Shown here piece by piece: positions 49,177 to 64,000 of a DNA stretch of 64,000 nt. The DNA is from an uncultured delta proteobacterium (GTDB lineage: Bacteria > Myxococcota_A > Polyangia > Haliangiales > Haliangiaceae). The stretch lies in the NCBI GenBank assembly GCA_963848295.1, contig CAWKDB010000002.1:736001-800000 (forward strand), read 5' to 3'. A program made the translations under genes and the position numbers. Under the pieces are notes generated by a model. That model saw only the letters and a list, made by a program, of their open reading frames with translations, did no database searches and was not told where the DNA came from. Within the stretch, counting starts at the first letter, position 1, and each line of letters opens with the position of its first letter.

Positions 49177-52100
49177 CTACTGCTTGCGAGCCGCCTTCGC
49201 CGCGTGCAGCCGGCGCAAGAAGTCGTAGATCACGAGCTCCTGCGCGCGATGCGACGCGTGCAGCAAGCGATTCGCGTGCATGTGGACGAGGCTCCATGCG
49301 ATGTCGAGCAGCGGCGGCGATAGCTCACCCGCGGCGTCGCGCCGGCGCAGCTCGGTCGCGAGCTCGGCGAGTTGCGCGTCGCGCACGCCGAGGATCGTGA
49401 ACCCGGGCTCGAGATCGTGACCCGCATCGCGCTCGGCATCCGGCTCGAACAGATGCTCGAGCAACGCGCGGTCCTTCGCGAACCGATCGCCGATCTGGCC
49501 CCACAACGCGGTCGTCGCTCGGTGCTCGCGGCCGAGCATCTCGCGCGCGTCGTTCCACACCTTCGCGCGCTGTGCGCGATCGAGACCGAGCGCGACCAGC
49601 AACGACTCGGCGCCGCGCACCGCGAGCTGCCAGCGTGCGGCGGCGCCCTCGTCGCCTTCGAGGAGCTCGACGATCGCCAACACCGCTTCGCTGTCGCGCC
49701 AGAACAGCTCCTCCACGAGCTCGATCCCGCGATCGCCGCCGTAGCGCTCGAGCTCGCGCACGTACGTATCGACCACGACCTTGTACACGGTGCCGTCGGC
49801 GCGCAACGGAGCGAGGGCCACGTCGAGCGCGGGCACGACCTTGCCGAGCAGCACCTGCGGATCGCCACGAAACCGGACGCGGACATGCGGCTCGGGGTCT
49901 TGGTAGCGAACGAAGAACCAGCTCGCGAGCTCGCCGCGCTCGACCCCACCGCGCACGACCGGAGCGACCCCTTCGCGCAACACGCGATCCGACGCCGCTT
50001 CGCCGCAGTAGATCTTCGCGTAGAGCCAGTTCGAGCCGGGCCCGAGGTCGCGCACGGCGGTCGGCACCGGGGTCGGCGCGGGCTTCGGCTTCGGCTCGGT
50101 CGCGCGATCGCGCGTGAACATCATGACGATCTCGTCGGTGAATCGCCCCTCCGGTCCGTGCGCGGCGAGCCGATCGAGCGGAGGGAACTGCTCGGACAAC
50201 CGCGCGCTGGTCTCGCCCGCGAGCTCGTCCGCAAACGCTGCGACCAACATCGGATTGTCGAAATCGATCGGCAGCTCGTTGTCGCCCGAGACCAGCGTGA
50301 CGAACCGCGGCAGCTCGCGCGCCGTGCGCAAGGCCGCGACCGCGAGCGCGACGTCCGGCGCCTTCGCGCGATCCTTGCGCGCCGCCTTGACCGCCGCGGT
50401 GATCGGCGCGAGGTCCGCCGCCGCGAGCTGCCACTGGGCGCGCCCGACGATCGTGCGACCGATCCGGACGCGCGGCAACCGCGGCGACGCGGCGAGCACC
50501 CCCCACGAGAACCCGGTGTGGCGCTCGTGCTGGCTCTGCAGCGTACACAGGAAGCGATAGACGCCGAGCCCGCGCGAATAGTTGTGCGCGGTCGTCAGCC
50601 GCGGAATCACCTCGCGACCGAGCCGCCGAGACGCGAGCACGATGCGATCGCCGTCGAGTGCGACCGTGAGATCGTCGAGCTCGATCTGAGCTTCACGCGG
50701 CGCGCCGGATACGCCGAGATAGATAATCTCGTGGCCGCGCAACACCGGCCGACACAGCACGTTGCCGATGCGGCCATCGTCGAGGTGCACGATCTCGGCG
50801 AACACGGCGTCGGGCCGCGCCGCTTCTTCGATCGCGTGATGCGCGCGCACCGCCGCTTCGATCTCGGGCGACGCGTGACAGAACCGGCCGAGCAGCTTGC
50901 TCCCCGGTGGGCCGTCTGCGCCTTCGATCAACAGCTCCGGCTCGCCGCGCGCGAGCTGATCCTCGGTCCCTGCGATCCGCGCAAACACCGCGAGCGCATC
51001 GGGCGTCGCGGTCGAGCGATCGTCCTGCATCGCGACGAGATCCGCTTCAGTCAGCTCGATCTCGGCCGCGCCGGTCCGGATCGCCGCCGCCAGCAACCCC
51101 AGCATGTGGCGCTCGACCTTGCCCCACTGCGCGCGGGTCTCGCCGGGCCCGCCGGGGAAGTAGATGCCGGCGAGCAGCGGCGAGCCTTCGCTGCCGGGAC
51201 CGCGCGCCGCATCGAAGCCGAGCCCTGACTCCTCATCGAGCACCTCGGCGAGCGGCATGGTCCGGCCTTCGTAGCGGCTCGCAAACGCGCGCTTGAGCTC
51301 GTCGAAGCTGTTACTTATCGGCTGCTCGAGCCGCGCGAGCTGGTCGATCGTCCGTGCGAGCTCGGCCGCGACCTTCGTCGAGATCGTCGCGCCGGTCGGT
51401 TTGACCATATCGACTTGAAACAACCGCGCGCGATCGACCGGCGCGGGCAGCGGCGCGAGTGCGGCGGCGACGCGCTCGTAGACCGCGGGCTGTTGGCCGA
51501 GGCCCGCCGCGTCGATCGCGGCGATCTGCGCGCGCACGTCGACGAGGATCTCGTGCGCCTTGTCGAGCCCGGCCGCCGCGAGCTGCGCGATCATCCCGTC
51601 GATCGGCTCGGGCCCGGTGACCGAGACCCCGAGCTCGGGCACGAGCACCTGTGAATCGACCAGCTCGTCGATGAACGCACGCGCGTCGGCGAGCGTGATG
51701 TCCTCGGCGACGAGCGGCAGCGCCAGCGCCTCGCGCTTCGCGCCATCGGCGGCGCGGGCGAGCGTCGCGTCGAGATACTCGGTCGGCTCGAGCGACACCA
51801 ACCGATACGTGCGATCCTTGCCCTGGAGCTGCGCCGCCGCGTAGTGCCAACGCCCGGCGACGCGATACAGCGACGTATTGCGGCGATAGGTCAGCCGTTC
51901 ACGCGCTTCGGGCGTCGCGCTCAGCTCGCGCGCGAGCACGAACAGGTAGTCGTTGTCGAGGCGGGTCCGCCGCCGGTACTCGCCGCGCGGCGCGAGCCCG
52001 AGCGAGGTCGTACGCCCGAGCTGCACGCACGACACACCGGAGAACAAGCCGAACGGGGTCGCGCGCATCATCATCCGCGCGACGTACTTCACGAGGGACT

Positions 52101-52341
52101 GTTCGGCGCGTTGGCCCGCCGCCGACTCCGGGGCCGCTCTCCAGCCAGTCATCGCGTCGTAGAGGCTCGGCGACGCGACATACACCGCCTCGCGGACCTC
52201 CGGCAGCTCGAGCAGATCGGCGAGAAATTGCCGGCGATCCGGCGCCGCGGCCCAGTCGACGAACGCGGTCGCCGGCAATAGGGGTGTGCGCAGCATGATG
52301 CTGTCGCCTGCACGCAGCTGCCGTTCGCGCGGAGAGCCCAT
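49177..52341 (-). CDS. lanB: Class I lanthipeptide dehydratase (glutamylation and elimination domains)
   Basis: LRTPLLP, EAVYVASPSL, RATPFGLFSG, GRF, GNVLCRP, PRLTTAHN, WLYAKIY, FFVRY.DP..HVRVR, RELERYGG, HMHANRL. Confidence 0.93.
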   Translation of the reverse strand: MGSPRERQLRAGDSIMLRTPLLPATAFVDWAAAPDRRQFLADLLELPEVREAVYVASPSLYDAMTGWRAAPESAAGQRAEQSLVKYVARMMMRATPFGLFSGVSCVQLGRTTSLGLAPRGEYRRRTRLDNDYLFVLARELSATPEARERLTYRRNTSLYRVAGRWHYAAAQLQGKDRTYRLVSLEPTEYLDATLARAADGAKREALALPLVAEDITLADARAFIDELVDSQVLVPELGVSVTGPEPIDGMIAQLAAAGLDKAHEILVDVRAQIAAIDAAGLGQQPAVYERVAAALAPLPAPVDRARLFQVDMVKPTGATISTKVAAELARTIDQLARLEQPISNSFDELKRAFASRYEGRTMPLAEVLDEESGLGFDAARGPGSEGSPLLAGIYFPGGPGETRAQWGKVERHMLGLLAAAIRTGAAEIELTEADLVAMQDDRSTATPDALAVFARIAGTEDQLARGEPELLIEGADGPPGSKLLGRFCHASPEIEAAVRAHHAIEEAARPDAVFAEIVHLDDGRIGNVLCRPVLRGHEIIYLGVSGAPREAQIELDDLTVALDGDRIVLASRRLGREVIPRLTTAHNYSRGLGVYRFLCTLQSQHERHTGFSWGVLAASPRLPRVRIGRTIVGRAQWQLAAADLAPITAAVKAARKDRAKAPDVALAVAALRTARELPRFVTLVSGDNELPIDFDNPMLVAAFADELAGETSARLSEQFPPLDRLAAHGPEGRFTDEIVMMFTRDRATEPKPKPAPTPVPTAVRDLGPGSNWLYAKIYCGEAASDRVLREGVAPVVRGGVERGELASWFFVRYQDPEPHVRVRFRGDPQVLLGKVVPALDVALAPLRADGTVYKVVVDTYVRELERYGGDRGIELVEELFWRDSEAVLAIVELLEGDEGAAARWQLAVRGAESLLVALGLDRAQRAKVWNDAREMLGREHRATTALWGQIGDRFAKDRALLEHLFEPDAERDAGHDLEPGFTILGVRDAQLAELATELRRRDAAGELSPPLLDIAWSLVHMHANRLLHASHRAQELVIYDFLRRLHAAKAARKQ

Positions 52342-52367
52342 CCGTTACGACTATAGTAGAGACTGCG

Positions 52368-52547
52368 ATGTCTACGCTCGCTGCACCGGGCTCGATCGTC
52401 GGCCGAACGTTCGGCGACTTCGTGGTGCGCGAGGTCATCGGCCAAGGCGGGTTCGGCGAGGTCTATCGCGCCGAACAAACCACGCTCGGCCGCGAGGCCG
52501 TCGTCAAGGTGCTTCGCCGCACCCATCGCGCGAGCCCGCCGGCGATC
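52368..52547 (+). pseudogene. N-terminal fragment of a Ser/Thr kinase
   Basis: IGQGGFGEVYRAEQTTLGREAVVKVL, then kinase homology ends (no HRD or DFG). Confidence 0.8.
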
Positions 52548-52705
52548 AGCGACTCGGGACTCGCCAGTGCCTCGAGCTCGCGCAATCTCGCGACGAGCTC
52601 GGGGTTCGGCTCCGAGAGGAATGGCTGCTCGGCGAGCCAGTGGTCCGCGGCAAACTGTTCGACCGTCAGCGGCCGGACCAACTCTTCGAGCGCGATCGCG
52701 CTCAT
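52540..52705 (-). pseudogene. N-terminal fragment of a probable cupin/JmjC oxygenase
   Basis: ATGA-coupled to the TolC stop; LEELVRPLTVEQFAADHW...PF resembles cupin_4/JmjC N-termini; collides with the kinase fragment. Confidence 0.5.
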
Positions 52706-54264
52706 CGTTCGAGCATCCTCAGCCCGGACTTCTCGAGGATCTCGCCGGTCAATGCGTCGAGCTCGGCGCGCGATTCTTGGTAGCGCGCGCGCTCGACCGC
52801 TTCGCGCAGGCGGACGTTGCCGAGGTCGTCTTGACGGCGAATGATCTCCTGGCTCGACGACTTGCCGAGCTCGAATTTCTTTTGCTCGGCGTCGACGTTC
52901 GCCCGCGCGATCTCGACCGCGGACGCTCCGAGCTTCGCCGACTCGGCGTGGTTCTGGACCTCGTAGACCGCGCGCGCGGCCTCGGCGGCGACCTCGCGGC
53001 GGGTCTTGCCGACTTGAAACGCGCTGTCGTATGCGGCGGCGCGGCTCGCGTCGTACACGCCGCCGGCGGCGTGGTTGCCGATCGGCAGCTCGAACGTGAG
53101 ATTCGCGTCGACCTCGTAGCCGCCGGTGATCCCGTTCACCGCGTTGCCGAACGTCGCCGTGTGATTGATGAACATGCCGGTCGGGTCGTAGCCGGTGACA
53201 TCGGTGCCGAGCGGACCACCTTCGAGCCGGAGGTCGGCGCGGGGCAGCAGATCGCGCTTCGCGCCGGCGAGCTCGGCCTGCGCGGACTTGTCCTCGTCGA
53301 TCGCCGCTTTGAGATCGTCGCTCGTCGCGAGCGCGCGCGCCACGAACGTCGCTGGATCGAGCTCGACGCCGTCGGGGCTCGGCAGCGCGGGCGGCTTGAG
53401 CGCGAGCTTGGTCGCGGTGACGTCCATCCCGACGAGCAAGCGCAGCGCGACCGACTGGTTGATGACGTCGAGCTCCGCCGCCATGACGTCTTGCTGGCGC
53501 GAGGCCATCGCTTGCTTCGCCGGCAACAGCTCGCTCTCGCTGAACTTGCCGGTGCGAATCCCGCCCTCGGCGATCGAGACCTGGTGCTTCGCGAGCTCGA
53601 CGCCGTCGCGCCGGATCGCGAGGACATCCCACGCGAGGGCGAGCTCCCAGTAACCCCGTGCGACCGACAGCGCGTACATCCGCGCCGCGGCGGCGCGCCG
53701 GATCACCGCCGCGCTCGCATGCAGGTGCGCCGAATCGTAGGCCCGGTCATAGCCGGCGAGGCCGAAGCCCTTGAGCAGCGGCTGAGTCAGTCGCGCTCGG
53801 ACGCTGGCCTCGAACGTGTTGTCGACGCCGGGCGAGCGGTCGTAGTACGCGGTCGCGGTGCCGTACAGCTCGAGCGTGCCGTTCGTCGGGATCAGCTTGC
53901 GCAGCCCCAGCGCCGCGGTCTCGCTCGTTGCGGTCTGCTCGAGGCTCGGCAACCCGAGCTGGACGATCGCGCCGTTCAGCTTCGAGTAGTCCCCGGTCGC
54001 GAACAGCGTCAGATCATAGGCGCCCCGCGCCGCGGTGAACCGGGCCCGCGCCTGGGCGAGGGAGAACGCGGCGGATTCGAGCACCGGCGAGGCCTTCGCC
54101 GCGACGGCGAACAGGTCCGGCAACGCCAGCTCCTCGGCGAGCTGGTCGAACGTCGGATCGCCCTTGGCCTTCGGTTCGGCCGCGGCCGGGGCGACGACCA
54201 GGAGGGCGGATCCGATGACGCTCGCCAGCGTCGGCCGGCGGTGTCGGAGGACGATCGCGCGCAT
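52702..54264 (-). CDS. TolC family outer-membrane efflux protein
   Basis: Signal peptide; LTQPLLKGFG, VARGYWEL, LLPRADL, AEQKKFELG. Confidence 0.88.
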   Translation of the reverse strand: MRAIVLRHRRPTLASVIGSALLVVAPAAAEPKAKGDPTFDQLAEELALPDLFAVAAKASPVLESAAFSLAQARARFTAARGAYDLTLFATGDYSKLNGAIVQLGLPSLEQTATSETAALGLRKLIPTNGTLELYGTATAYYDRSPGVDNTFEASVRARLTQPLLKGFGLAGYDRAYDSAHLHASAAVIRRAAAARMYALSVARGYWELALAWDVLAIRRDGVELAKHQVSIAEGGIRTGKFSESELLPAKQAMASRQQDVMAAELDVINQSVALRLLVGMDVTATKLALKPPALPSPDGVELDPATFVARALATSDDLKAAIDEDKSAQAELAGAKRDLLPRADLRLEGGPLGTDVTGYDPTGMFINHTATFGNAVNGITGGYEVDANLTFELPIGNHAAGGVYDASRAAAYDSAFQVGKTRREVAAEAARAVYEVQNHAESAKLGASAVEIARANVDAEQKKFELGKSSSQEIIRRQDDLGNVRLREAVERARYQESRAELDALTGEILEKSGLRMLER

Positions 54265-54272
54265 CGCCGCAA

Positions 54273-56234
54273 TTGTCTCCGATCTGGCAGAGGCGGCCAA
54301 CTGTTGCAGCGGTCTGGTACCATTTGGAGGAGTTGGGGGAGTTCGACTCCGAAGGAGCCACCCAGGTCCGCGCGTTCGCATTCGTCGGCGCGGATCGCAT
54401 CCTCGTGGCCGACGCGGACGAGGATCGGTGTGACTGGGTCCGCAACGCGGCCGGCGTGATGTTCCAGGTCGAAGAGGTCTCGAACGCGCGCGACGCCCTC
54501 GCTCGCCTGACCGGGGACCCGCCGAAGGTGCTTGTCGTCGGCACCGCGCTCGCCGATGTCACCGGCGAGGCCTTGCTCGCCTACGCAGCGCGCCACCGGT
54601 TGCTCGGCGTTCATCGCCCGTGGCCGGTGGTGTTCTTGCTGTCCGACACGCCACAGTCCGCACCGGCGGTCGACGAACAACAGATCCCGATCTTCTTCAG
54701 GCTGGTCCCGACGCTGCAACCGGAACGCGTTCGCGAGCTGTTCAATCAGGCGCTCGCCCGAACCGCGCAGCTCGAGCCGACGTCGCGCCCCGACGAAGAC
54801 GAGGATCCAGATCGCACGCGCCGCCTGGTCGAGCACATGCGCAAGCTCGGCCTGCAGCGCTCGGTCAAGCCGGCGGCCGAGGCGGTGATCGAGGCGGTGA
54901 TCGATGTCGTCCACGCCGATCGCGCGCGCTGCCTGTACTACGACGACGACCGTGGCTCGCTGTGGTCCGAGCTCGACGAGGACAGTGACACGCCGGCGTC
55001 GATCGGCCTCGCCGGGTTCGCGGCACGCGCCGGCACTCCGATCGTGCTAGAGCGAGCCAGCGCCGATCCCGCGTACCAAGCGAACGTCGACGATCCGTCG
55101 GGTATCGGCGACGAGCGTCTCGTCGTGCAGCCCGTCGTCGATCGCGACCACCGCGTCCAGGCCGTGCTGATCGCGATGCGTGCCGCCACCAGCGCTCCGT
55201 TCTCGCCGGCCGACGTCCGCGCGTTCGGCGAGCTCGCGACGTCGTGGAGCCCGTACATCCACCAGCTCGCGTCCGAGTCGGCGACGGCCGCCGAGGAAGC
55301 CGAGGTCGACGAAGGCGCCGCGTCGATGTTCCGCCAGGAGGCGATCGACCACATGATCCGCCGCGGGGCGCGCGGCGACGTCGTGCGCATCCATCCCGGC
55401 TGGATCCACGGCGCGTTCTGGCTCGTCCTCGCGTCGATGGGCGCACTCCTCGGGTACTCCGCGGTCGCGCGGATCCACGAGTACGCCGAAGGCCCTTCGG
55501 TTGTCCGGGTCACCGGCTTGACCGACCTGGTCGCCTACGACGGCGGCAGCGTGACATCGGTCGAAGTCGCGGCCGGCCAGCCGGTCACCGAGGGTCAGGT
55601 GATGATCCGCCTGCACGACACCGAGCAGGCGAGCAAGATGCGCGGCCTCGACGCCGAGTTCAAGCGCAAGCTCGTCGCCTATCTCCAGTCGCCGTCGGAT
55701 CCGGCCATGAAAGCGTCGCTGTCGGCGACGAGGGCCGAACGCGACAGCGCGAAGGCCAGCCTCGATGCTCGCGTCATCCGCGCGCCGCACGATGGCATCG
55801 TCCGCGACGTGCTGGTCTCCGTTGGTCAGAAGGTCGACGCCGGCAAAGTCGTGGCGCGCGTCGCCCAGAAGGGCGTGACCGAAGGCCTCTCGGTGCTCGC
55901 GTTCCTGCCCGGCACCGATCGCCCGCGCCTGCGCGCCGGCCAGCTGTTGCGGATGACCCTGCCCGGCTATCGCGGCGCCGAGGTCGAGACCAAGGTGATC
56001 GGCATCGGTAGCGAGGTCATGGGCGCGTCCGAGGCCAAGTCGCGCTACCTCGCCGACCGGCTCGGCGACAGCGTGCCGATCCAGGGCACGGTGGTCGTCG
56101 TCGAGGCGAAGCTGCCCAAGACGTTCGTGTCCGACGGCCGGACCTACGAATTCCACGACGGCATGGTCGGCTCGTCCGAGGTCCGGTTGCAGTCGAAGAC
56201 CGTGCTCCAGACCGCGATCGGCGTGTTCAAGTGA
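54273..56234 (+). CDS. HlyD-family secretion adaptor with N-terminal pseudo-receiver and GAF domains
   Basis: RILVADAD (REC-like); ADRARCLYYD...GLAGFAARAG...DPAY...VD (GAF); FRQEAID, TM helix, IRAPHDGIV, GMVG; start may lie downstream (e.g. 54333). Confidence 0.8.
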   Translation: MSPIWQRRPTVAAVWYHLEELGEFDSEGATQVRAFAFVGADRILVADADEDRCDWVRNAAGVMFQVEEVSNARDALARLTGDPPKVLVVGTALADVTGEALLAYAARHRLLGVHRPWPVVFLLSDTPQSAPAVDEQQIPIFFRLVPTLQPERVRELFNQALARTAQLEPTSRPDEDEDPDRTRRLVEHMRKLGLQRSVKPAAEAVIEAVIDVVHADRARCLYYDDDRGSLWSELDEDSDTPASIGLAGFAARAGTPIVLERASADPAYQANVDDPSGIGDERLVVQPVVDRDHRVQAVLIAMRAATSAPFSPADVRAFGELATSWSPYIHQLASESATAAEEAEVDEGAASMFRQEAIDHMIRRGARGDVVRIHPGWIHGAFWLVLASMGALLGYSAVARIHEYAEGPSVVRVTGLTDLVAYDGGSVTSVEVAAGQPVTEGQVMIRLHDTEQASKMRGLDAEFKRKLVAYLQSPSDPAMKASLSATRAERDSAKASLDARVIRAPHDGIVRDVLVSVGQKVDAGKVVARVAQKGVTEGLSVLAFLPGTDRPRLRAGQLLRMTLPGYRGAEVETKVIGIGSEVMGASEAKSRYLADRLGDSVPIQGTVVVVEAKLPKTFVSDGRTYEFHDGMVGSSEVRLQSKTVLQTAIGVFK

Positions 56235-58480
56235 GCGCCGCCGACGAGGCCCCGCCGGCTGCAGCCGCACCGGTCTCGGGCGAGGAGGATCTGTTCCCGT
56301 CGCTCGCGCGGTTATCCCAGGATCGACGGCGCGGCCGGATCCCGTTCGTGCAGCAGACCGAGGACGCCGACTGCGGACCGGCGTGTCTCGCGATGGTGCT
56401 GCGCTACCTCGGCCGCCACGTCATGCTCGACGAGGTCCGCGAGGCGATCGGCAGCGGGCGCGAAGGCACCGACGGCGGCGCGCTGCTCCGCGGCGGCCAG
56501 CACTACGGGTTGGTCGGGCGCGGCCTCTCGCTCGACGTCGAGGGTCTCAAGTTCCTGCCGCCCGGCTCGATCCTGCACTGGGACTTCAATCACTTCGTGG
56601 TGTTCGACCGCGTCACTCGGCACGGCGCGTTGGTCGTCGATCCCGGCCGCGGGCAGCGCACCGTCACGGCCAAGCAGCTCCAAGAGTCGTTCACCGGCGT
56701 CGCGCTCGTGTTCGAGCGCAGCGGCGCGTTCGAGCGGCGCGAAGCGGGCGCGGGTCGGTGGCGCTGGTACGTCGATCAGCTGTTCGGCCAGCGCAAGCTC
56801 GCGCTGCGCGTGATCGTGACGTCGCTGTTGTTGCGGTTGTTCGCGCTCGCCGTGCCGATGTTGGTCGCGCTCGTCGTCGATCGGGTGATTCCTCGAGGCG
56901 ACAACGGCTTGTTGATCGTCGTGTCGGTCGGGCTCGGCGGCATGTTGGTGTTCCAGCTGTTATCGAACCTGATCCGCGCGCACTTGTTGCTCCAGCTGCG
57001 CACGAACTTCGACACGCGGCTCACGCTCGGGTTCGTCGACTTCATGTCGCGGCTGCCGTTCGATTTCTTCCAGCGGCGCAGCGCCGGCGATCTGATGATG
57101 CGGGTCAACAACAACGCGACGATTCGCGAGCTGCTCACCTCCGACATCCTGTCGACGATGATCGACGGCGTGCTCGTGCTCGGCTACTTCGCGCTCGTGA
57201 TCTACCTCGCGCCGTTGATGGCGGCGGTCGTCGGCGGGCTCGCGCTGCTCGAGATGCTGGTGTTCATCGCCACGCGACGCCGGTTCCGCAACTTGCAGGC
57301 GAGCTCGCTCGATGCCCAGGCGCGCACCCAGTCGTATCTCGTCGAGCTCTTCGCCGGCATGTCGACGCTCAAGGCGTCCGCTGCCGAGGGCCGCGCGGTC
57401 GAGCGGTGGTCGAATCTCTACGTCGACGAGCTCAACGTCGCGCTCGATCGCGGTCGGCTCAACGCGGTCGTCGACTCGGTCATGCACATGTTGCAAGAGG
57501 CGGCGCCGCTCGTCGTGCTCGTCGTCGGCACGGTCTCGGTGCTGCGCGGGTCGCTGTCGCTCGGCGCGATGCTCGCGGTCAACTCGATCGCGCTCGGCTT
57601 GCTGACGCCGCTGTCGTCGCTGATCCAGAGCGCGCTCAAGCTGCAGCTCCTCGGCGGCTACATGGACCGGATCGACGACGTGCTCCGCCAGGAGCCCGAG
57701 CAGAGCGGCGACAAGGCGGTGAGCGCACCGAAGATCACCGGCCGGATCACGCTGCAGAACATCTCGTTCCGCTACAGCGAGCGCGCGCCGTTCGTCGTGC
57801 GCAACGTCTCGATCGACATCAAGGCCGGCAGCAAGATCGCGATCGTCGGCCGGTCCGGCTGCGGCAAGTCGACGCTCGCGAGCCTGATCGCAGGCATGTA
57901 TCGCCCGACCGAGGGCCGGATCTTCTTCGACGGTCACGACGCCGGCCGGCTCGAGCTCAAGAGTCTGCGCCGCCAGCTCGGCGTCGTGTTCCAGGCACCG
58001 TACCTGTTCCAGGGCTCGATGCGCACGAACATCGCGCTCACCGATCCGTCGACTCCACTCGATCGCGTCGTCGCGGCCGCTCGCCAGGCGTGCATCCACG
58101 AGGACATCGATCGCATGCCGATGGGTTACGAGACGGTCATCGCCGACGGCGGGTCGTCTCTGTCGGGTGGCCAGCGCCAGCGCATCGCGATCGCGCGCGC
58201 CCTGGTCCATCGCCCGAACGTGATGATCCTCGACGAGGCCACCAGCGCGCTCGACTCCGAGACCGAGCGCCGCGTCATCGACAACCTCAACAAGATCGCG
58301 TGCACGCGCATCATCCTCGCGCACCGGCTCAGCACGATCATCAACGCCGACATCATCCTCGTGATGGATCAGGGCGAGGTCATCGAATCCGGCACCCACG
58401 AGGAATTGCTGGCGCGCGCTGGCCTCTATCGTACGCTTGTGGCTGCCCAGCTCTCGATGGGCGAAGGAGTGGACGCTTGA
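56231..58480 (+). CDS. Peptidase C39-domain ABC transporter (PCAT, bacteriocin exporter)
   Basis: QQTEDADCGPACLAM, LHWDFNHFVV, GRSGCGKST, LSGGQRQR, ILDEATSALD, AHRLS. Confidence 0.95.
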   Translation: MSAADEAPPAAAAPVSGEEDLFPSLARLSQDRRRGRIPFVQQTEDADCGPACLAMVLRYLGRHVMLDEVREAIGSGREGTDGGALLRGGQHYGLVGRGLSLDVEGLKFLPPGSILHWDFNHFVVFDRVTRHGALVVDPGRGQRTVTAKQLQESFTGVALVFERSGAFERREAGAGRWRWYVDQLFGQRKLALRVIVTSLLLRLFALAVPMLVALVVDRVIPRGDNGLLIVVSVGLGGMLVFQLLSNLIRAHLLLQLRTNFDTRLTLGFVDFMSRLPFDFFQRRSAGDLMMRVNNNATIRELLTSDILSTMIDGVLVLGYFALVIYLAPLMAAVVGGLALLEMLVFIATRRRFRNLQASSLDAQARTQSYLVELFAGMSTLKASAAEGRAVERWSNLYVDELNVALDRGRLNAVVDSVMHMLQEAAPLVVLVVGTVSVLRGSLSLGAMLAVNSIALGLLTPLSSLIQSALKLQLLGGYMDRIDDVLRQEPEQSGDKAVSAPKITGRITLQNISFRYSERAPFVVRNVSIDIKAGSKIAIVGRSGCGKSTLASLIAGMYRPTEGRIFFDGHDAGRLELKSLRRQLGVVFQAPYLFQGSMRTNIALTDPSTPLDRVVAAARQACIHEDIDRMPMGYETVIADGGSSLSGGQRQRIAIARALVHRPNVMILDEATSALDSETERRVIDNLNKIACTRIILAHRLSTIINADIILVMDQGEVIESGTHEELLARAGLYRTLVAAQLSMGEGVDA

Positions 58481-59376
58481 TGCTGCGCCGCGCGGTTTGC
58501 TCGCTCGCTCTGCTCGTCGGCTGTGCCGGCGACCAGCCCGTCGGCGAGGACAAGCCGGCTCCCGACCCGCTCGCCCTGCCGCACACCACCGCCTCCGACG
58601 TCCCGAAGACCATCGGGTTCATCGGCGTGCTGACGCCGCGCGACGTCGCCGAGGTGACCGCGCCGTTCACGACGAAGGTCGACCAGTTCTTCGTCAACCT
58701 CGGCGATCACGTCGAGAAGGGCACGCGCCTCGCGCACCTCGACGAGCAGCCGCTGCAACAGCAGCTCACCGCGGCGAGAGCGGAGCTCCGGGCGCGCCAG
58801 GCCGAGATCTCGCGCGCCTCGTCGGCGAGCAGCGCCGCTGCCCAGGCATATCGCCGCGACAAGGCGGGCCTGAGAGAAGGCGTGGCATCGCGCGCCGACG
58901 TCGCGGACGCCGCGGCGAGGAGCAACGAGGCCGCCTTCTCGGTGTCGAAGGCGATCGCGGACGCCGATCAGCAGAAGGACAACATCGCGACGCTCACAGA
59001 CAAGCTCGCGAAGATGACGCTGACCGCACCGATCGCGGGTCAAGTGGCGCTGCGCTACGTCGAAGACGGCGCGCGAGTCGAAGAGGGCAAGCCGGTGATC
59101 CGCGTGATCTCGTCGGGCCAACTGTTCGTGCGGTTCGCGATCCCGACCGATCAAGTCGGCAAGGTGTCGCCGAACGACCTCGTCGATGTCCAGATCGAGG
59201 GGCGCCCGGGCGTCGCGCACGGCGTCGTGACCAACGTCTCGCCCGAGCTCGACTCGGTCGCGCAGATGATCCTCGCCGAAGCCGAGCTCACCGCGCCGGT
59301 CCCCGACAAGCTCCAGCCCGGGATGGTGGCTCACATCATCGCGACCGGCGCCAAGCCCGCGAAGCCCGCGCCCTAA
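58480..59376 (+). CDS. Efflux periplasmic adaptor subunit (lipoprotein)
   Basis: LVGC lipobox; V.LGDHVEKG..LA.LD, LTAPIAGQV, LQPGM. Confidence 0.85.
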   Translation: MLRRAVCSLALLVGCAGDQPVGEDKPAPDPLALPHTTASDVPKTIGFIGVLTPRDVAEVTAPFTTKVDQFFVNLGDHVEKGTRLAHLDEQPLQQQLTAARAELRARQAEISRASSASSAAAQAYRRDKAGLREGVASRADVADAAARSNEAAFSVSKAIADADQQKDNIATLTDKLAKMTLTAPIAGQVALRYVEDGARVEEGKPVIRVISSGQLFVRFAIPTDQVGKVSPNDLVDVQIEGRPGVAHGVVTNVSPELDSVAQMILAEAELTAPVPDKLQPGMVAHIIATGAKPAKPAP

Positions 59377-59380
59377 CCCC

Positions 59381-61061
59381 GTCGGGTTGCCCCGGGTGTG
59401 ACCCGGGGCTCCCACAGATCCGGACGTGCCGATTTCCGGCATCCGGCTCTTCGTCCACGGGTTCGCTACGTCCGGTAGATGCTGTGGACGACCTTGGGCG
59501 GCAGAAGCGGATACCGCTTCAGCACGCGCATGAATCGTGGCCACGGCATCGCACCGCGTCCTGTCCGACGGTGCAGCCATTTCTGCCAGACACGGGTCAC
59601 CTCGTAAAAGAAACTCGAGAGCGCGTTGGCGTTTCCGGTGATACCGAAATAGCCGTAGTGCCAGCATCTGCGAGAGGTGTTTGTGCTGTCTGGCGATCTT
59701 GTCGTGCAGGTGAAGCCTGCACCACTGGCTGACCCGTCGAAGTGCGCGACCAAATCGACTGCGAGCCGTCTGCCGCTTCACCACCCACGTTTTCTTGAGC
59801 GACTTTCCCCAGAAGTGCGTGAAGCCGAGCAGATCAAAGCTCTCGGTGTCCACGTCCTTCGGGGTATCGCTCTTCTGCGGCCGGACAAACCTCACCAGCC
59901 GCGTCTTCGTTGGATGGAGCTTCAGTCCGTATTTGCCGAATCGTTTCGGCAGTACGTCCATCACCTTGCGAGCGTCACTTTCCGACGAGAATACGAGGAC
60001 AGCGTCGTCCGCGTACCGGACGAGAAACGCGTGGCCTTGCAGCCTAGGCTTCACGTCCGCCTCGAACCACGTGTCGAGCACCTCGTGTAAATAGACGTTC
60101 GCCAGGAGCGGCGAGATGACCCCGCCTTGTGGTGTTCCAGCATCGGCGTATCGCAGCTCGGTTGCTTCGAGGACGCCGGCCTTGAGCCACTTGTTGATCG
60201 TGCGACGCAGTACTCCGTCTCGTACTCGGCGGTCGAGGAAGCTCCGCAAGTGCTCGTGGACCAACGTGTCGAAGAAAGCTTCGATGTCGATCTCCAGCAC
60301 CCACCCACCCTGCATCTTCATCAAGCCGTCCCAAAGCGCCTGCAGAGCATCATGGGCCGAGCGCGCGGGTCGGAAGCCGTACGAGCAGTCCAAGAATTCC
60401 TGCTCGTAGATCGCCTCGCCAGCTCTGCTATCTGTTGCATTCTCGTGGGGATGTCCTTGGGACTCGAAGTTCCGGTCATCTTGCCCTCCAACAGTTCCGT
60501 GTTCCGGCCCGTCCTTCCCTCCACCGGGTCCCGTTGAGTTGGTTCCCCGGCTTCCTCGGTACTACGACGAGCTCCGACTTCCAGTCGTCCGTTCCGCCGC
60601 GCTTCGTTGCCTTCACGCGTCGGTTACCGTCGTCGTGCTCTTGTTCGCTTCCCTGCGCACGAGCACGGCGCGCATGGACCTGGACCCGATCATCGGCGGC
60701 CCTCCCCGAATCTTCGACGGAGACGGTGGATCTCCCAGGTTCCTGGCGAACCTCACGTGTGCAACCCGCTCCGCTCTTTGACCCCGGCAGGACCTTCGCG
60801 CTCAGGCCAGACGACGCGCGTCGGTGCTGCGTCCGCATCAGCATACGGCGGACGCTCCCAGCGATTGTGCTCTCGAGGCTCGATCACGCAGCAGTTGCAC
60901 TCCCTGTGTACGCTTCGTAGCGCCGGTTTCCCGACGACCACGCAACACTCGGTTCCGGGTGGTGGCCACCTTTCCCGGGCAGCGGTTGAAACGCTGCAAG
61001 GTTCGATCGAGAGGTTTCAGTTATCCATCCGTTCTCCTCTCCCAGGCTTTGCCTGGCGCAC
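59381..61061 (-). mobile_element. Group II intron with degenerate RT (class E-like by inference)
   Basis: 5' GTGCG at 61061-61057; domain V GAGCCGGATGCCGGAAATCGGCACGTCCGGATC (59449-59417) with AGC triad; domain VI hairpin ending AC at 59381. Confidence 0.92.
59466..60479 (-). pseudogene. ltrA: Intron-encoded reverse transcriptase/maturase, internally deleted and frameshifted
   Basis: GGAGGG RBS and ATG at 60479; SYGFRP, DIEAFFD, GTPQGGVISPLLAN, RYADD, FDLLGF, HYGYFG. Deletion near 60412-60417 and frameshift near 59662; no endonuclease domain. Confidence 0.88.
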
Positions 61062-61602
61062 ATGCCGCTCAGATAACGTTGACCTTGACCTGAACGGTGA
61101 ACCTGAACTTGAACGGCACCTTAGACGTTGTCGTTGACACCGCAACTCCAGAGTTGTGTGGCCGATAGCCCGGTCATGCTCAGCTTCCAGAAGCTTCGCG
61201 TCGATCAACGCTCGATCGAGTTCCTCGCGCTGGCACTGGAGATCATCGGCGAGCTTCCGAAGGGTCATGCCGCGCTTGCCGATCAGCTGGTCCGCGCCGT
61301 CCAGTCGCAACCTCGTAACATCGCCGAGGGTGCGGGTCGTCGCACGAACGTCGATCAGGCTCGCTTCTACACGCACGCGCGCGGCTCCGCGATGGAGGCC
61401 GCAGCGGCTTTGGACACGATGCGAGTCATGAAGTTGGTCGGCGAGACGACCTACGCGCGCGGCATCGATCTACTTGAAGCATCGTGGCGATGCTCACCAA
61501 GATGAACTGATCGGGTCGACGTCAATGTCCAAGGTGGCGTTGATGTTCATGTTCATGTCGATCATGTCGAGGTCAAGGTCAACGCACTTATCTGAGCGGC
61601 AT
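61062..61602. mobile_element. Inverted-repeat-bounded cassette carrying a four-helix-bundle gene
   Basis: ATGCCGCTCAGATAA (61062-61076) is the exact reverse complement of 61588-61602; CGTTGACCTTGACCT (61077-61091) is the exact reverse complement of 61570-61584; degenerate hexamer tracts lie inside both arms. Confidence 0.7.
61176..61510 (+). CDS. Four helix bundle protein (23S rRNA IVS / bAvd-like), apparent 1-bp frameshift near the C-terminus
   Basis: FQKLRVDQ, LADQLVRA..S...NIAEG.GR, ARGSAME. The typical ending IVAMLTKM lies in another frame from about 61480. Confidence 0.85.
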
Positions 61603-61675
61603 TGGTACTAGCCCGCGCGCCGGCGGCGCTCCGGGTCGGTCTGCTTGTTCTGCGAAGTGCGCTATTCTCCGGCGC

Positions 61676-62557
61676 GTGAAGCGCCTCGTCGTCGCCTTCA
61701 TCGCGGTCGCCGGGTTCGGCACCGCGCGATTCGCGCGCACCGCGGCGCAAGCCGAGTCGGTGGGAGGCGGCGCCGACGATGTCTACGCGCCGTCCCCCGG
61801 CGCGGCCCCGTTTGTCTCGCTCGGCTATCGCGAGCTCGCGGCCGACGTGCTGTTCGTCCGGTTGCGCGGTTACTTCGGCGGCGACCACAACACCGCGGAT
61901 GGCATCGCGTCACTGGTCGAGGCGATCGTCGCGCTCGATCCGCAGTTCCATCGCGTCTATGACTATGGCGCGCGAGCCATGGAGCTCGCCACGACCGGGG
62001 TCGGCAACGCGATCTACCTGCGTGCGATCGGCGTGCTCCGCACCGGGATGAAGGCGTTTCCCGACGACTGGAAGCTGCCGGATCTCGCGAGCGAGATCTA
62101 TACGCAGGATCTCCAGACCGACGATCCGGCGAAGCGCCGCGAGTGGGACGAGAAGGGCACACTGCTCGCCGAATCGGCGCTACGCAAGCCCGGCGCACCG
62201 CAGGAGGCGGCGACGTGGGTTGCGACGATGCGCACCCGGCTCGGCCAACACGAGCGCGCCGCCGCCGGCCTCAAGGAGATGCTGCTCGTCACGAACGATC
62301 CGACGACGCGAGCCCGGCTGATCGACAAGCTCGCCGCGCTCGACCACGCCGACGCCGCCGAGATCGCGGGCGAGATCTACGAGCAGCGCCGCAAGTTCGA
62401 ACAGGCGTGGCGCGCCGACCGCCCCACCCTGCCCGCGACGATGTACATCCTGCTCGGCCCTCACCCGCGGCCCGGGTTTGACCTCGGCGATCTCGCGACC
62501 GGAGGCCGAGACCTCACCCGGACGGACGAGATCGAGAAGCTGCCGCCGGTCGACTGA
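61676..62557 (+). CDS. Exported TPR-like helical protein (resembles the deltaproteobacterial PilG-like family)
   Basis: SLGYRELAADVLFVR...YFG, LDPQF..VY.YGA, G.KAFPDDW.L. Confidence 0.6.
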   Translation: MKRLVVAFIAVAGFGTARFARTAAQAESVGGGADDVYAPSPGAAPFVSLGYRELAADVLFVRLRGYFGGDHNTADGIASLVEAIVALDPQFHRVYDYGARAMELATTGVGNAIYLRAIGVLRTGMKAFPDDWKLPDLASEIYTQDLQTDDPAKRREWDEKGTLLAESALRKPGAPQEAATWVATMRTRLGQHERAAAGLKEMLLVTNDPTTRARLIDKLAALDHADAAEIAGEIYEQRRKFEQAWRADRPTLPATMYILLGPHPRPGFDLGDLATGGRDLTRTDEIEKLPPVD

Positions 62558-62571
62558 GCTCGCGCACGCTA

Positions 62572-62670
62572 CAAGGTGACAATAGAGACACCGTCACCAA
62601 TTTCCTTGAACAGATACCTGCGGTTGGCGCGGGGCTCACGCGCGCAAGGTGACAAAAGAGACAGCGTCCC
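62572..62670 (-). repeat. Repeat doublet 4 (period 73)
   Basis: CAAGGTGACAATAGAGACACCGTCACC (62572-62598) and CAAGGTGACAAAAGAGACAGCGTCCC (62645-62670). Confidence 0.9.
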
Positions 62671-64000
62671 TATTTCGGAAGGCGGTCCGAGTAGTCTTTG
62701 ATCAAGATCGCCGGCGGGTCGGCGTGGATGTCGACGCTGTAGGTCTCTTTGATCCCGAACTCGTTGTTAATGAGCGTGATCTTGTGGACGCCGACGGGGA
62801 TCGCGTACGCCCTCTGCGGCGTCTGCAGGCCGGTGTCTTTGCCGTCGACGTGGATGTTGCACGGCGGCTTCGAGTTGAGGCGCAGGACGCCCATTTTCGG
62901 GACGGTGTCGGCGGGGTGCTCGTTGTGCTCGTTGGTCGCGACGCCGCCATCGGTCTTCGGCGGCGTCTCGGTCACGGCCTTGTGCTCCGGCTGGTTCGTG
63001 CGCAGCGGATTCGTCGCGACGGTCGGGTGCTGCGGGGGCGTCCCGGCGGAGTTGGTGTGCGGCGGGTTCGCGTGCGTCGGCTGGGTGACCGGTCCGGTCG
63101 CTGCGATCGGGGGCGTCCCTGCGGTCGGCGGTGCACCAGCGGCTTCGAGATCGACCGTGATCTTCTCGTCGGGGGCTCCGCTGAACGAGATCGGGCGATT
63201 GATCGACACCGCGCCGGGCTTCTCGAACAGCACCGCATAGGTCTTGCGCGGGTCGAGCGTCGCCTGCTGCGGGCTTGGCCCGAGGAGCTGGCGCTTGCCG
63301 TCGACGATCAGCGACACGGTGGCGCCCTGCGGATTGGAATCAAAGTGACCGGTCACCGAGATCGCGTCGAGCGTGATCTCGACCTTCGACGCCTGGCTGA
63401 GCTCGACGCTGACGGTCTTGTTCGCGCTCATGAACCCGATCGGGGCATCGATCGCGATCGTGTGCACGCCGGGCGCGATGTCGCGGATCCGCGCCGGGAC
63501 GTTGATCTGTTGCTCGACGCCGTCGAGCTTCCAGCCCTTGACCGTGCTCGGCGTGACGTAGAGGTCGAAGCCGGTCTTGTCGTCGCCGGCGACCCGCGGT
63601 GGTTCGGCTGGGGCCGCCGAGCCCGGCGGTTGAGCTGGAGCCGTCCCAGCCGTGGCCGCCGTCATCGTCGTCGGCTTATTGCCGCCGCTGGTCACGGCGA
63701 TCACGATCACCACGGTCAGCACGACCAACGCAGCCGCGATGATCGCGATCGTCATCGTGCGCTTTTTCTGCTGGCGACGATGCGCGGCGGAGCTGCCGAA
63801 CATCGGCTGCTCCTCGAACGCCGACGGATACATCATCGGCGCGGGTGGCTGCGACACGAGGCGAACCGGCGCCGAGCTCTCGCGGGGTTGCGCGAGCGAT
63901 GCGACCAGCGCGGCCGCCGGATCTTCGTAGTGCGCGGGGACGGGGCCCTTCTGCGAACCGGCGGCAGAGATCCGCGGCGGCTCGATCATCGTCGGTGCGT
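62670..64000 (-). CDS. C-terminal part of a membrane protein with PEGA domains (5' end outside the window)
   Basis: TM helix followed by SNPQGATV, LNSKPPCNIHVDGKDTGLQTP, PVGVHKITL. Confidence 0.8.
   Translation of the reverse strand, partial: APTMIEPPRISAAGSQKGPVPAHYEDPAAALVASLAQPRESSAPVRLVSQPPAPMMYPSAFEEQPMFGSSAAHRRQQKKRTMTIAIIAAALVVLTVVIVIAVTSGGNKPTTMTAATAGTAPAQPPGSAAPAEPPRVAGDDKTGFDLYVTPSTVKGWKLDGVEQQINVPARIRDIAPGVHTIAIDAPIGFMSANKTVSVELSQASKVEITLDAISVTGHFDSNPQGATVSLIVDGKRQLLGPSPQQATLDPRKTYAVLFEKPGAVSINRPISFSGAPDEKITVDLEAAGAPPTAGTPPIAATGPVTQPTHANPPHTNSAGTPPQHPTVATNPLRTNQPEHKAVTETPPKTDGGVATNEHNEHPADTVPKMGVLRLNSKPPCNIHVDGKDTGLQTPQRAYAIPVGVHKITLINNEFGIKETYSVDIHADPPAILIKDYSDRLPK

Follow-up and report, generated by a model that had tools for sequence, protein, structure and literature searches.

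Introduction

That group II introns target mobile elements is nothing unusual, and homing to insertion sequences (IS) in particular is reported to be widely used by those of bacteria, examples being E.c.I2, E.c.I3, E.c.I4 and E.c.I9 of Escherichia coli (PMC3522654). According to the same source, E.c.I4 occupies specific positions in transposase genes of the IS3 family, E.c.I3 is directed to IS679, and E.c.I2 and E.c.I9 to IS elements associated with Rhs (PMC3522654). RmInt1 of Sinorhizobium meliloti homes to ISRm2011-2, and its protein is described as being without the D and endonuclease (En) domains (PMC1802570). A repeated recombination site is reported as the target of the IIC-attC introns (PMC7923331). 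Here we describe a group II intron in a 64,000-nucleotide (nt) stretch of DNA from an uncultured delta proteobacterium (contig CAWKDB010000002.1, positions 736,001 to 800,000; the whole of this stretch is referred to below as the window). The reading that we hold with good confidence is that the window contains a dead copy of an endonuclease-less intron with a broken reverse transcriptase (RT) gene, which lies 2 nt inside the terminal repeat of an IS4-type cassette and was probably placed there by retrohoming.

[quoted passage not shown] Unlike the site of E.c.I4, its target is the terminal repeat, 2 nt from the tip, which each element offers in two copies and which transposase-less derivatives possess as well, and the host element belongs to the IS4 family. 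The second exon-binding site (EBS2), which RmInt1 uses, has no match in the present lineage. IIC-attC introns of the S.ma.I2 type are likewise endonuclease-less, use a recombination site that belongs to another mobile system and is repeated and imperfectly palindromic, have a short first intron-binding site (IBS1) and lack EBS2; however, attC is a folded integron site of 60-140 nt, reportedly recognised as a bulged stem-loop (as Leon and Roy are said to have found in 2009), whereas in the present case the target is the terminal repeat of an element of IS4 type, and the ribozyme does not resemble that of IIC introns. Introns of classes IIE and IIF (Cl.be.I2, Pe.th.I2, Ge.ur.I1-1) share with it a small, IIB-like ribozyme of ~670 nt, a 5-nt loop in domain V (D5), an α′ element in the DId3 region and the absence of an endonuclease, and have relatives in the same phyla (PMC3552965); by contrast, their characterised members show an apparent EBS2-IBS2 duplex.

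The cassette itself recalls MIC231 of Bacillus cereus, a derivative of IS231 (IS4 family) in which a passenger gene is reported to replace the transposase between IS-type repeats, with direct repeats of ~10 base pairs (bp) (PMC2266710). The ends of IS231 begin with CAT and those described here with CAATGCC, and the IS4 subgroup, the phylum and the cargo (here of the 23S_rRNA_IVP family) also differ. We know of no intron associated with MIC231, and a non-exhaustive literature search likewise found none. In the open-access literature, no published report was found of an IIE/IIF-like intron at the tips of IS4-family repeats. What is particular to this system is the combination of an IIE/IIF-type ribozyme, a target at the tip of an IS4-family repeat, including those of cassettes and of MITEs (miniature inverted-repeat transposable elements) and including both ends, and the absence of EBS2 pairing.

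An IIE/IIF-like intron with a broken reverse transcriptase gene

On the minus strand the 5′ junction reads ...aacgttatctgagcggcat|gtgcgccagg, the 5′ exon ending in ...TTATCTGAGCGGCAT, and the 3′ junction reads ...caacccgac|ggggttaggg (Table 1; coordinates follow the numbering of the window, C2, C10 and C11 are contigs of the same genome, and L numbers denote individual loci). Together with domains V and VI, these ends conform to the boundary rule of 5′ GUGYG and 3′ AY. RF02005, which the core of domain I matches over the full model, and RF00029 gave the sole two Rfam matches at gathering level across the window, and RF02005 had no match in 14 control genomes. The RT/maturase gene is placed in domain IV of the ribozyme, although in the window it is broken. 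The complete intron of a relative (L040, on a 2.4-kb contig of a metagenome-assembled genome, MAG) comprises 1993 nt, and the full length in the lineage is ~1990 nt; the window intron, 88.4% identical to that of L040 overall and 93% within the ribozyme, is a decayed copy.

Table 1. Positions of the intron, the cassette and neighbouring genes in the window
Feature	Position	Strand	Remarks
Group II intron, 1681 nt	59381..61061	-	GTGCG start at 61061, ...CCCGAC end at 59381; RF02005 and RF00029
Domain I core, group-II-D1D4-6 (RF02005)	60772..60989	-	intron nt 73-290; 111 bits, cut-off 49, E 1.4e-30, model 1-225 (full)
Domains V and VI (RF00029)	59381..59451	-	45.2 bits, cut-off 40
RT/maturase gene remnant, three frames	59466..60479	-	MTGT..ELARR; IYEQEF..SQML (60411-59662); HYGYFG..SIYRT, stop 59468-59466; from six-frame reading
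Hairpin with EBS1, 8-bp stem and 11-nt loop	60829..60855	-	stem 60855-60848 (GCGTCCGC) with 60836-60829 (GCGGACGC)
EBS1, AUGCUG, inside the hairpin loop	60844-60839	-	intron nt 218-223
IBS1, CGGCAT, final 6 nt of the 5′ exon	61062..61067	-	nt 3-8 of the IS4-type terminal repeat from its tip
Candidate EBS3, A after GGGGUC	60779	-	intron nt 283
Candidate α′, UGGCC, terminal loop of second DId3 hairpin	60805..60809	-	pairs with candidate α, GGCCA, at 60967-60963 (near nt 95-99)
Transposase-less cassette (resembling mobile insertion cassettes), 543 bp	61062..61604	+	terminal inverted repeats ATGCCGCTCAGATAA... and ...TTATCTGAGCGGCAT, then TG
Cassette cargo, 109-aa four-helix-bundle protein	61176..61505	+	PF05635 23S_rRNA_IVP, 62.2 bits (cut-off 33.8); antisense to intron
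Right flanking duplication, GTACTAGCCC	61605..61614	+	NNN-CTAG-NNN
Degenerate left flanking duplication and 3′ exon, GCCCTAACCC then C	59370..59380	+	overlaps TAA stop (59374-59376) of HlyD-family gene
HlyD-like gene	54273-56234	+	GAF domain
C39-peptidase ABC transporter	56231-58480	+	
HlyD-family gene	ends 59376	+	HlyD_D23, 57 bits

Classes IIE and IIF are reported to be distinguished by three traits (PMC3753933), which are also seen here: D5 has a loop of 5 nt, α′ occupies a terminal loop within DId3, and the size without the ORF is 450-700 nt. The distal part of D5 in the window (GCCG-GAAAU-CGGC) folds into 4 bp with a 5-nt loop (GAAAU). Among 20 D5 regions of relatives, 16 fit the pattern, all with a distal part of 13 nt; 11 of these fold as 4 bp and three as 3 bp, in both cases with a 5-nt loop, and two do not fold alone. 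A candidate α′ lies at the tip of a DId3 stem-loop, and the ribozyme of L040 without its ORF measures ~670 nt (585 nt 5′ and 85 nt 3′ of the ORF). By the structural features of the ribozyme, we regard it as IIE/IIF-like. Relatives are present in myxobacterial, acidobacterial and deltaproteobacterial MAGs, a taxonomic range resembling that of class F, which has been reported from introns of these same groups (PMC3552965).

The central piece of the window RT (60411-59662) is matched by RVT_1 with 99 bits. In comparison with L040, the gene has lost 304 nt at ~60418/60417, in the region of RT0-RT2, and 5 nt at ~59663/59662, and each loss shifts the frame. To judge from the sequence, the window copy is dead, and because its RT is broken it cannot be an active homing agent. 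Both deletions are also found in a copy on C11, at a different locus and at the opposite end of a cassette, which implies that either an RT-less copy was mobilised in trans or gene conversion took place; the remaining copies in the genome carry different internal deletions. The genome assembly (7.78 Mb in 11 contigs, 85% complete) yielded no intact copy, and the only other RT in it, 36% identical, is part of a different intron near C11:619-621 kb. Every one of the 13 relatives whose contig covers 2000 nt or more of the intron retains an ORF of 440-511 amino acids (aa), and in this genome the lineage would since have decayed to fragments.

The intact RT of L040 (440 aa) matches TIGR04416 with 339 bits (cut-off 300) and is a group II RT/maturase; a Pfam search with it returned RVT_1 only and no nuclease domain. 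These matches and those to Rfam bear out the earlier proposal of an endonuclease-less group II intron. Among public reads, the stretch was present in one soil DNA run (share 0.56), as were forms joined across the intron, and three soil RNA-library runs yielded contigs 90-95% alike; no exon-exon joins were found among the latter, which cover only the ribozyme and D5 of relatives.

Two distant introns of RF02005 type are also present on C11, at 620667-620935 (L095, 52 bits) and 151392-151660 (L094, 57 bits), neither in an IS4-type repeat. The former has the 5′ exon ...CGCGTCATG|GTGCG and a long open frame with the RT that is 36% identical to that of the window; the latter starts with GTACG and is without a long RT frame.

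The host cassette as a derivative of an IS4-type element

The cassette gave 36 BLAST pieces in the genome, among which 15 true ends can be recognised. Ends free of intron read ...GGCAT-TG-NNN-CTAG-NNN, and the 10 bases that follow TG recur before CA at the opposite end; the true termini are therefore CA...TG, flanked by a 10-bp target duplication centred on CTAG. These flanks agree at 10/10 positions at C10:4408269/345, C10:3467455/3468157 and C2:270988/271525, and elsewhere at 9, 8 or 7 of 10. Deleted cassettes of ~70 nt occur as well, for example at C10:4408269-4408345. In the window the arms contain exact 13-mers at 61064-61076 (plus strand) and 61588-61600 (minus strand). The splice site had originally been placed at the last base of the stem; this was off by 2 nt, as the intron-free repeats run on to TG.

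The same termini enclose transposase genes in metagenome sequences. An element of 1494 nt (L198), with flanks GTACTAGTAC agreeing at 10/10 positions, encodes a protein matched by Nterm_IS4 (97 bits) and DDE_Tnp_1 (86 bits); L193 contains an IS4-type transposase and L202 a DDE_5 transposase. In L199, L203, L205 and L206 they enclose four-helix cassettes of the 23S_rRNA_IVP family, and in other cases elements of 138-290 nt without an ORF. The ends read CAATGCCGCTCAGATAA and fit the consensus of the IS4 subgroup, for which ends of -AATR--------WTW, a length of 1400-1650 bp and direct repeats of 10-13 bp are given (PMC2266710, Table 1). Because these termini elsewhere enclose IS4 transposases and the ends fit this consensus, we take the "cassette stem" to be an IS4-type terminal inverted repeat and the cassette to be a transposase-less derivative of an IS4-type element. 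It agrees with descriptions of mobile insertion cassettes and MITEs in having IS-type repeats and a flanking duplication, in being multicopy and in lacking a transposase. A search with the L198 transposase found no match in the window's genome, at the 85% completeness of the assembly.

A reading of the repeats as integron attC sites was rejected: the arms are 500 nt apart and flank a gene, the tips are CA..TG, the duplications are of 10 bp, and IS4 transposases are found between such ends elsewhere. A HUH (Y1) transposase was also considered as the mobiliser of the cassette and was set aside after the IS4 transposases had been found, the match to Y1_Tnp being weak. It concerns an element of 4.1 kb (C10:3039852-3043987; L214 253-4388) with the same CA-ATGCCG...CGGCAT-TG tips and tandem GATCTAGACC copies on both flanks, whose apparently truncated Y1/HUH-like ORF scores 25.9 bits against PF01797 Y1_Tnp and 22.8 bits in NCBIfam, where the cut-off is 80. 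This element further carries a GDSL lipase, an NmrA-like protein and a TetR regulator, and, by eye, the 3′ half of a four-helix-bundle gene at its right tip.

Inside the terminal repeats, the cassette arms (61077-61125 and 61516-61585) show imperfect 6-nt periods (TTGACC, CTGAAC, GTGAAC; ATGTTC, GAGGTC) and pair as an imperfect inverted repeat of ~75 nt; arms with this periodicity are also found in the metagenome cassettes L199, L205, L206 and L212. Past the 3′ end of the intron in L198, two elements of the family abut: TG-GTACTAGTAC is followed directly by GTACTAGTAC-CA-ATGCCG, the palindromic 10-mer being used twice in tandem.

The cargo protein of the window cassette also matches TIGR02436 (59 bits, cut-off 24), the other NCBIfam matches being only to two PRK12275 subfamilies. 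The Avd proteins of diversity-generating retroelements (DGRs) are four-helix bundles. The RT remnant and the four-helix-bundle gene (PF05635) lie ~700 nt apart, and the preliminary description had seen in them a pairing reminiscent of a DGR. That the two genes cooperate as a DGR-like or other retroelement module is nonetheless extremely unlikely. The RT is embedded in domain IV, the ribozyme around it being complete, its intact relative belongs to the group II RT/maturases (see above), and the window gene is broken; the two genes are on opposite strands and in two different mobile elements. Moreover, 12 of the 15 cassette ends are without an intron, and elsewhere the intron adjoins transposase genes or nothing, so that the four-helix gene is one of several cargoes. 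A search for a pair of template and variable repeats gave none; in the list for 50000-64000, direct repeats reach 40 nt at most, with 65-70% identity to the reference copy. The DGR reading was rejected on these grounds.

Pairing of the intron with its exons

The preliminary description had noted an 8-bp hairpin with an AUGCUG loop that could pair with CGGCAT of the exon, next to the GTGCG junction. All of these features were found in the sequence at the positions claimed, and AUGCUG and CGGCAT (61067-61062) can form 6 bp, one of them G-U. In the Rfam consensus, the hairpin is nested within an enclosing helix and is followed by a second hairpin (α′), which assigns it to the DId3 region, as had been supposed. 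The enclosing helix comprises 8 pairs and shows compensatory changes among 15 sequences; RNAalifold, applied to the same 15 DId3 regions, recovered the outer helices only, the inner hairpins being misplaced by the MAFFT alignment.

Relatives were gathered via the central RT piece (53 loci). The 40 scanned loci gave 32 matches to domain I, every one of them to RF02005. The canonical GTGYG start could be fixed in 19 introns, that of the window included; 12 RF02005-positive entries without a GTGYG start, together with L055 and L063, have uncertain 5′ boundaries and stand outside the EBS analyses. For the permutation test, the 19 aligned introns were reduced to 13 by setting aside five near-duplicates (L040, L057, L073, L053 and L072) and L062, whose exon comprises just 6 nt.

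When the introns are aligned, the loop that follows a conserved U is seen in each of them to complement the final 5-8 nt of its own 5′ exon. This column complements the own exon in 12 of the 13 non-redundant introns, whereas no column exceeded 4/13 in 30 permutations of the exons. Covarying pairs of EBS1 and IBS1 include CAAGAC/GTCTTG (L046), CCAAAAG/CTTTTGG (L044) and AAGTGAT/ATCACTT (L060), and a comparison of L048 (AGTGATCG/CGATCGTT) with L065 (AUUGAUCG/CGATCGGT) reveals a compensating swap from G-U to U-G. Because of this excess over the permutations, and because three introns found later (L215, L221, L224) also show pairing of loop and exon, we take the AUGCUG loop to be EBS1, as had been suggested at the outset.

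No alignment column other than position 60779 complements the first base of the 3′ exon (+1) in as many as 13 of the 14 relatives, a count that takes in two T-to-A switches (L060, L042), and the A at this position is a reasonable candidate for EBS3. For the candidate α-α′ pairing, the mean Watson-Crick run is 4.86 with the own partner, as against a mean of 3.74 over 57 derangements, none of which exceeded 4.21; covarying pairs are GGCCA/TGGCC, TGCCG/CGGCA, GAGGTCG/CGACCTC and GACCT/AGGTC.

An EBS2 could not be named in the preliminary description, and the same holds here: a search of the variable region that follows CGAAA found no EBS2-IBS2 complement in either the window intron or L040. Across the relatives, the best column pairs in 7/13, which equals the maximum of the permutations, and this region yields suggestive single cases in L054 (8 bp) and L060 (7 bp). 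One candidate, TGGATAAC/GTTATCTG (8 bp, intron nt 35-42), was dismissed as chance, being not kept in L040 and sitting in a hairpin. In in vitro splicing of IIE/IIF introns, EBS1 is reported to be essential and EBS2 dispensable (PMC3753933).

Distribution of insertion sites

Each of the seven remnants of the intron in the genome borders on a cassette end, and the insertion point is CAT|TG, 2 nt inside the tip of the repeat. Two of them (the window and C10:2646879) are at the left end and run antisense to the cargo gene, and four are at the right end (C11:720981, C10:4057241, C10:3468157 and C10:2116765); an orphan intron tail of 25 nt is situated between CA and TG at C2:1221146. Three loci retain the intact 5′ junction ...TTATCTGAGCGGCAT|GTGCG. 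The intron is followed by the 3′ exons TGATACTAG, TGGATCTAG, TGCTGCTAG, TGGAGCTAG and CGGGGCTAG and, in the window, by GGGGTTAG, without the T. Four of six have the form TGNNNCTAG and one more the form CGNNNCTAG, which leaves CTAG in register in 5/6. CGGCAT occurs 11,847 times in the genome and CGGCATT 593 times; EBS1 and EBS3 alone therefore cannot explain why 7/7 remnants are at cassette ends.

Corresponding junctions were found beyond this genome. L040 has a full-length intron at ...CCTATCTGACCGGCAT|intron|TGGAACTAG, the end of a different element of 232 nt, and a metagenome scan yielded 21 contigs with the same type of junction, some at the ends of intact elements with an IS4-type transposase. 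The 5′ exons of these contigs vary upstream and end in YTAW..GANYGGCAT, with GA at -9/-8 in 20/21 (by eye) and AA in one. Five of the six EBS1 pairs, GGCAU with AUGCY, are kept in 21/21 copies, a count that is not independent since the search pattern forced GGCAT. In nine contigs the 3′ end of the intron was found, and seven of them continue with TG-NNN-CTAG. The proposal that the repeat serves as a multicopy homing site is upheld by the remnants of the genome, located at both ends of cassettes, by the 21 contigs and by L040. A junction scan of species genomes with ATCTGANCGGCATGTGCG gave 97 matches, 96 of them chance occurrences without an intron and the other the L040 contig.

The species genomes were also scanned in an unbiased manner with the first 28 bases of the intron. 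This returned 15 copies, seven of them at IS4-type ends; three of the seven end in CAGCAT, which pairs perfectly with AUGCUG of the window. The other 8/15 lie in unrelated exons and carry other EBS1 sequences wherever the loop is visible, a pattern expected if the target of the lineage follows EBS1 and an AUGCUR sub-lineage has specialised on IS4-type tips.

The distribution might alternatively result from a single ancient insertion into one cassette, followed by passive spread of cassette plus intron through transposition or recombination, which we consider improbable. Such spread would account for the duplications that enclose cassette and intron together with agreement at 10/10 positions (C10:3467455/3468157 and L198) and for the two identical deletions in the window and C11 copies; however, enclosing duplications are equally expected if the intron arrived after the cassette. 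It is difficult to reconcile with an intron at the left end in two loci and at the right end in four, in the opposite orientation to the cargo gene, and with host elements that are unrelated save for the terminal repeat, namely elements with an IS4 transposase, elements of 138-290 nt that have no ORF, and four-helix cassettes. Furthermore, an intron 2 nt from the tip parts the repeat from the end and should hinder its use by a transposase.

A second alternative, which appears quite unlikely, is that targeting depends on the shape of the DNA, as in IIC introns: the arms would fold into a long hairpin of single-stranded DNA, and the intron would insert where the stem begins, irrespective of sequence. 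The insertion point does lie at the base of a potential stem on whichever strand carries the intron, EBS2 has no match, and in a sequence comparison of the RT with PDB entries the best matches are IIC RTs (5hhl, 5hhj and 7uim, 167-168 bits), with a small margin over LtrA (159 bits). On the other hand, IBS1 is within the 3′ arm of the stem and not downstream of it, the spacing of the arms ranges from 138 nt to more than 2.6 kb among the hosts, and inspection by eye found no consistent hairpin in the 5′ exons of relatives, whereas IIC introns insert behind a hairpin of terminator-like or attC type. The ribozyme, moreover, bears the hallmarks of IIE/IIF and has ~670 nt, as compared with the 412 nt given for the IIC intron of O. 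iheyensis (PMC3753933).

Three further insertions are recorded here. In L060 (2085-2107), a relative with the EBS1 AAGUGAU lies 13 nt inside a similar repeat (CTAG-ACC-CAATGCCGATCACTT|GTGCG) and reads into the element, a second, independent use of the same repeat family. In L223, an intron with the same 28-nt 5′ end is inserted in ...GACCTTGACATTGACCTTGA, which resembles the 6-nt periodic arms of the cassette and not the tip. In L203, a 628-nt derivative of the intron, which has an internal deletion and no ORF, is located at the end of a repeat, next to a 23S_rRNA_IVP gene and the 3′ terminus of an FHIPEP-family gene.

Proposed mode of insertion

A feasible model of retrohoming in this lineage is that a particle of intron RNA and RT recognises the tip of the repeat by an EBS1-IBS1 pairing of 5-6 bp and by pairing of the A at EBS3 with T at +1, aided by extra contacts, probably made by the RT, to conserved positions of the repeat, namely GA at -9/-8 and TA at -14/-13 (both judged by eye). 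Reverse splicing would then take place between CAT and TG, and, with no endonuclease, copying would be primed from the nascent strand at the replication fork, a route that is reported as established for RmInt1 and IIC introns (PMC4424553). A multicopy, non-essential repeat would provide a safe and renewable target.

Several points weigh against this reading. Retrohoming is deduced from patterns of insertion, and the conserved exon positions, which may provide the specificity beyond ~7 nt, are also constrained by the transposase. The deletions common to the window and C11 copies could be explained by gene conversion between copies in place of mobilisation in trans, and an intact copy may be present in the unassembled part of the genome, which is 85% complete. 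The flanking duplication of the window agrees at only 7/10 positions (by eye) and that of L040 at only 5/10. EBS3 is based on just two covarying sequences, and the +1 base in the window is G, a mismatch to the candidate EBS3, where relatives have T. To these are added the lack of an EBS2-IBS2 complement, the eight copies with the same 28-nt start in unrelated exons and the design of the metagenome search, whose pattern included GGCAT and could return this type of target only.

Should retrohoming nevertheless be the correct reading, as we think probable, one selfish element has specialised on another, and every IS copy, MITE and cargo cassette offers it two targets. The ~30 junctions constitute a natural data set for the specificity of an endonuclease-less intron without EBS2, and they define a target, ..TANNNGANYGGCAT|TG, that is testable for work on retargeting. 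It is also tempting to speculate, although the odds appear to be poor, that the lineage gave up EBS2 and came to read the tips at which the transposase of IS4-type elements binds. Its insertions, 2 bp from the end, would cap and disable these tips, making it a specific parasite of, and a natural brake on, the transposon family; single-stranded or hairpin intermediates of the ends may be the point of entry, and the deletions shared by the window and C11 would mark RT-less copies moved in trans.

Surroundings of the nested elements

The intron and the cassette fill the intergenic space directly after the HlyD-family gene, the stop codon of which overlaps the degenerate target duplication. For annotation, this block of 2.2 kb is best described as two nested dead mobile elements and not as a DGR or an integron. 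The genes upstream of it (54273-59376; Table 1) make up an export set of bacteriocin type. In this GC-rich DNA, the list of long ORFs includes many overlapping spurious frames. A direct repeat of 31 nt, CAAGGTGACAAWAGAGACA.., occurs at 62572-62602 and 62645-62675, 73 nt apart and 84% identical, in an AT-richer interval between convergent-looking ORFs, and may represent a pair of operator or promoter sites.

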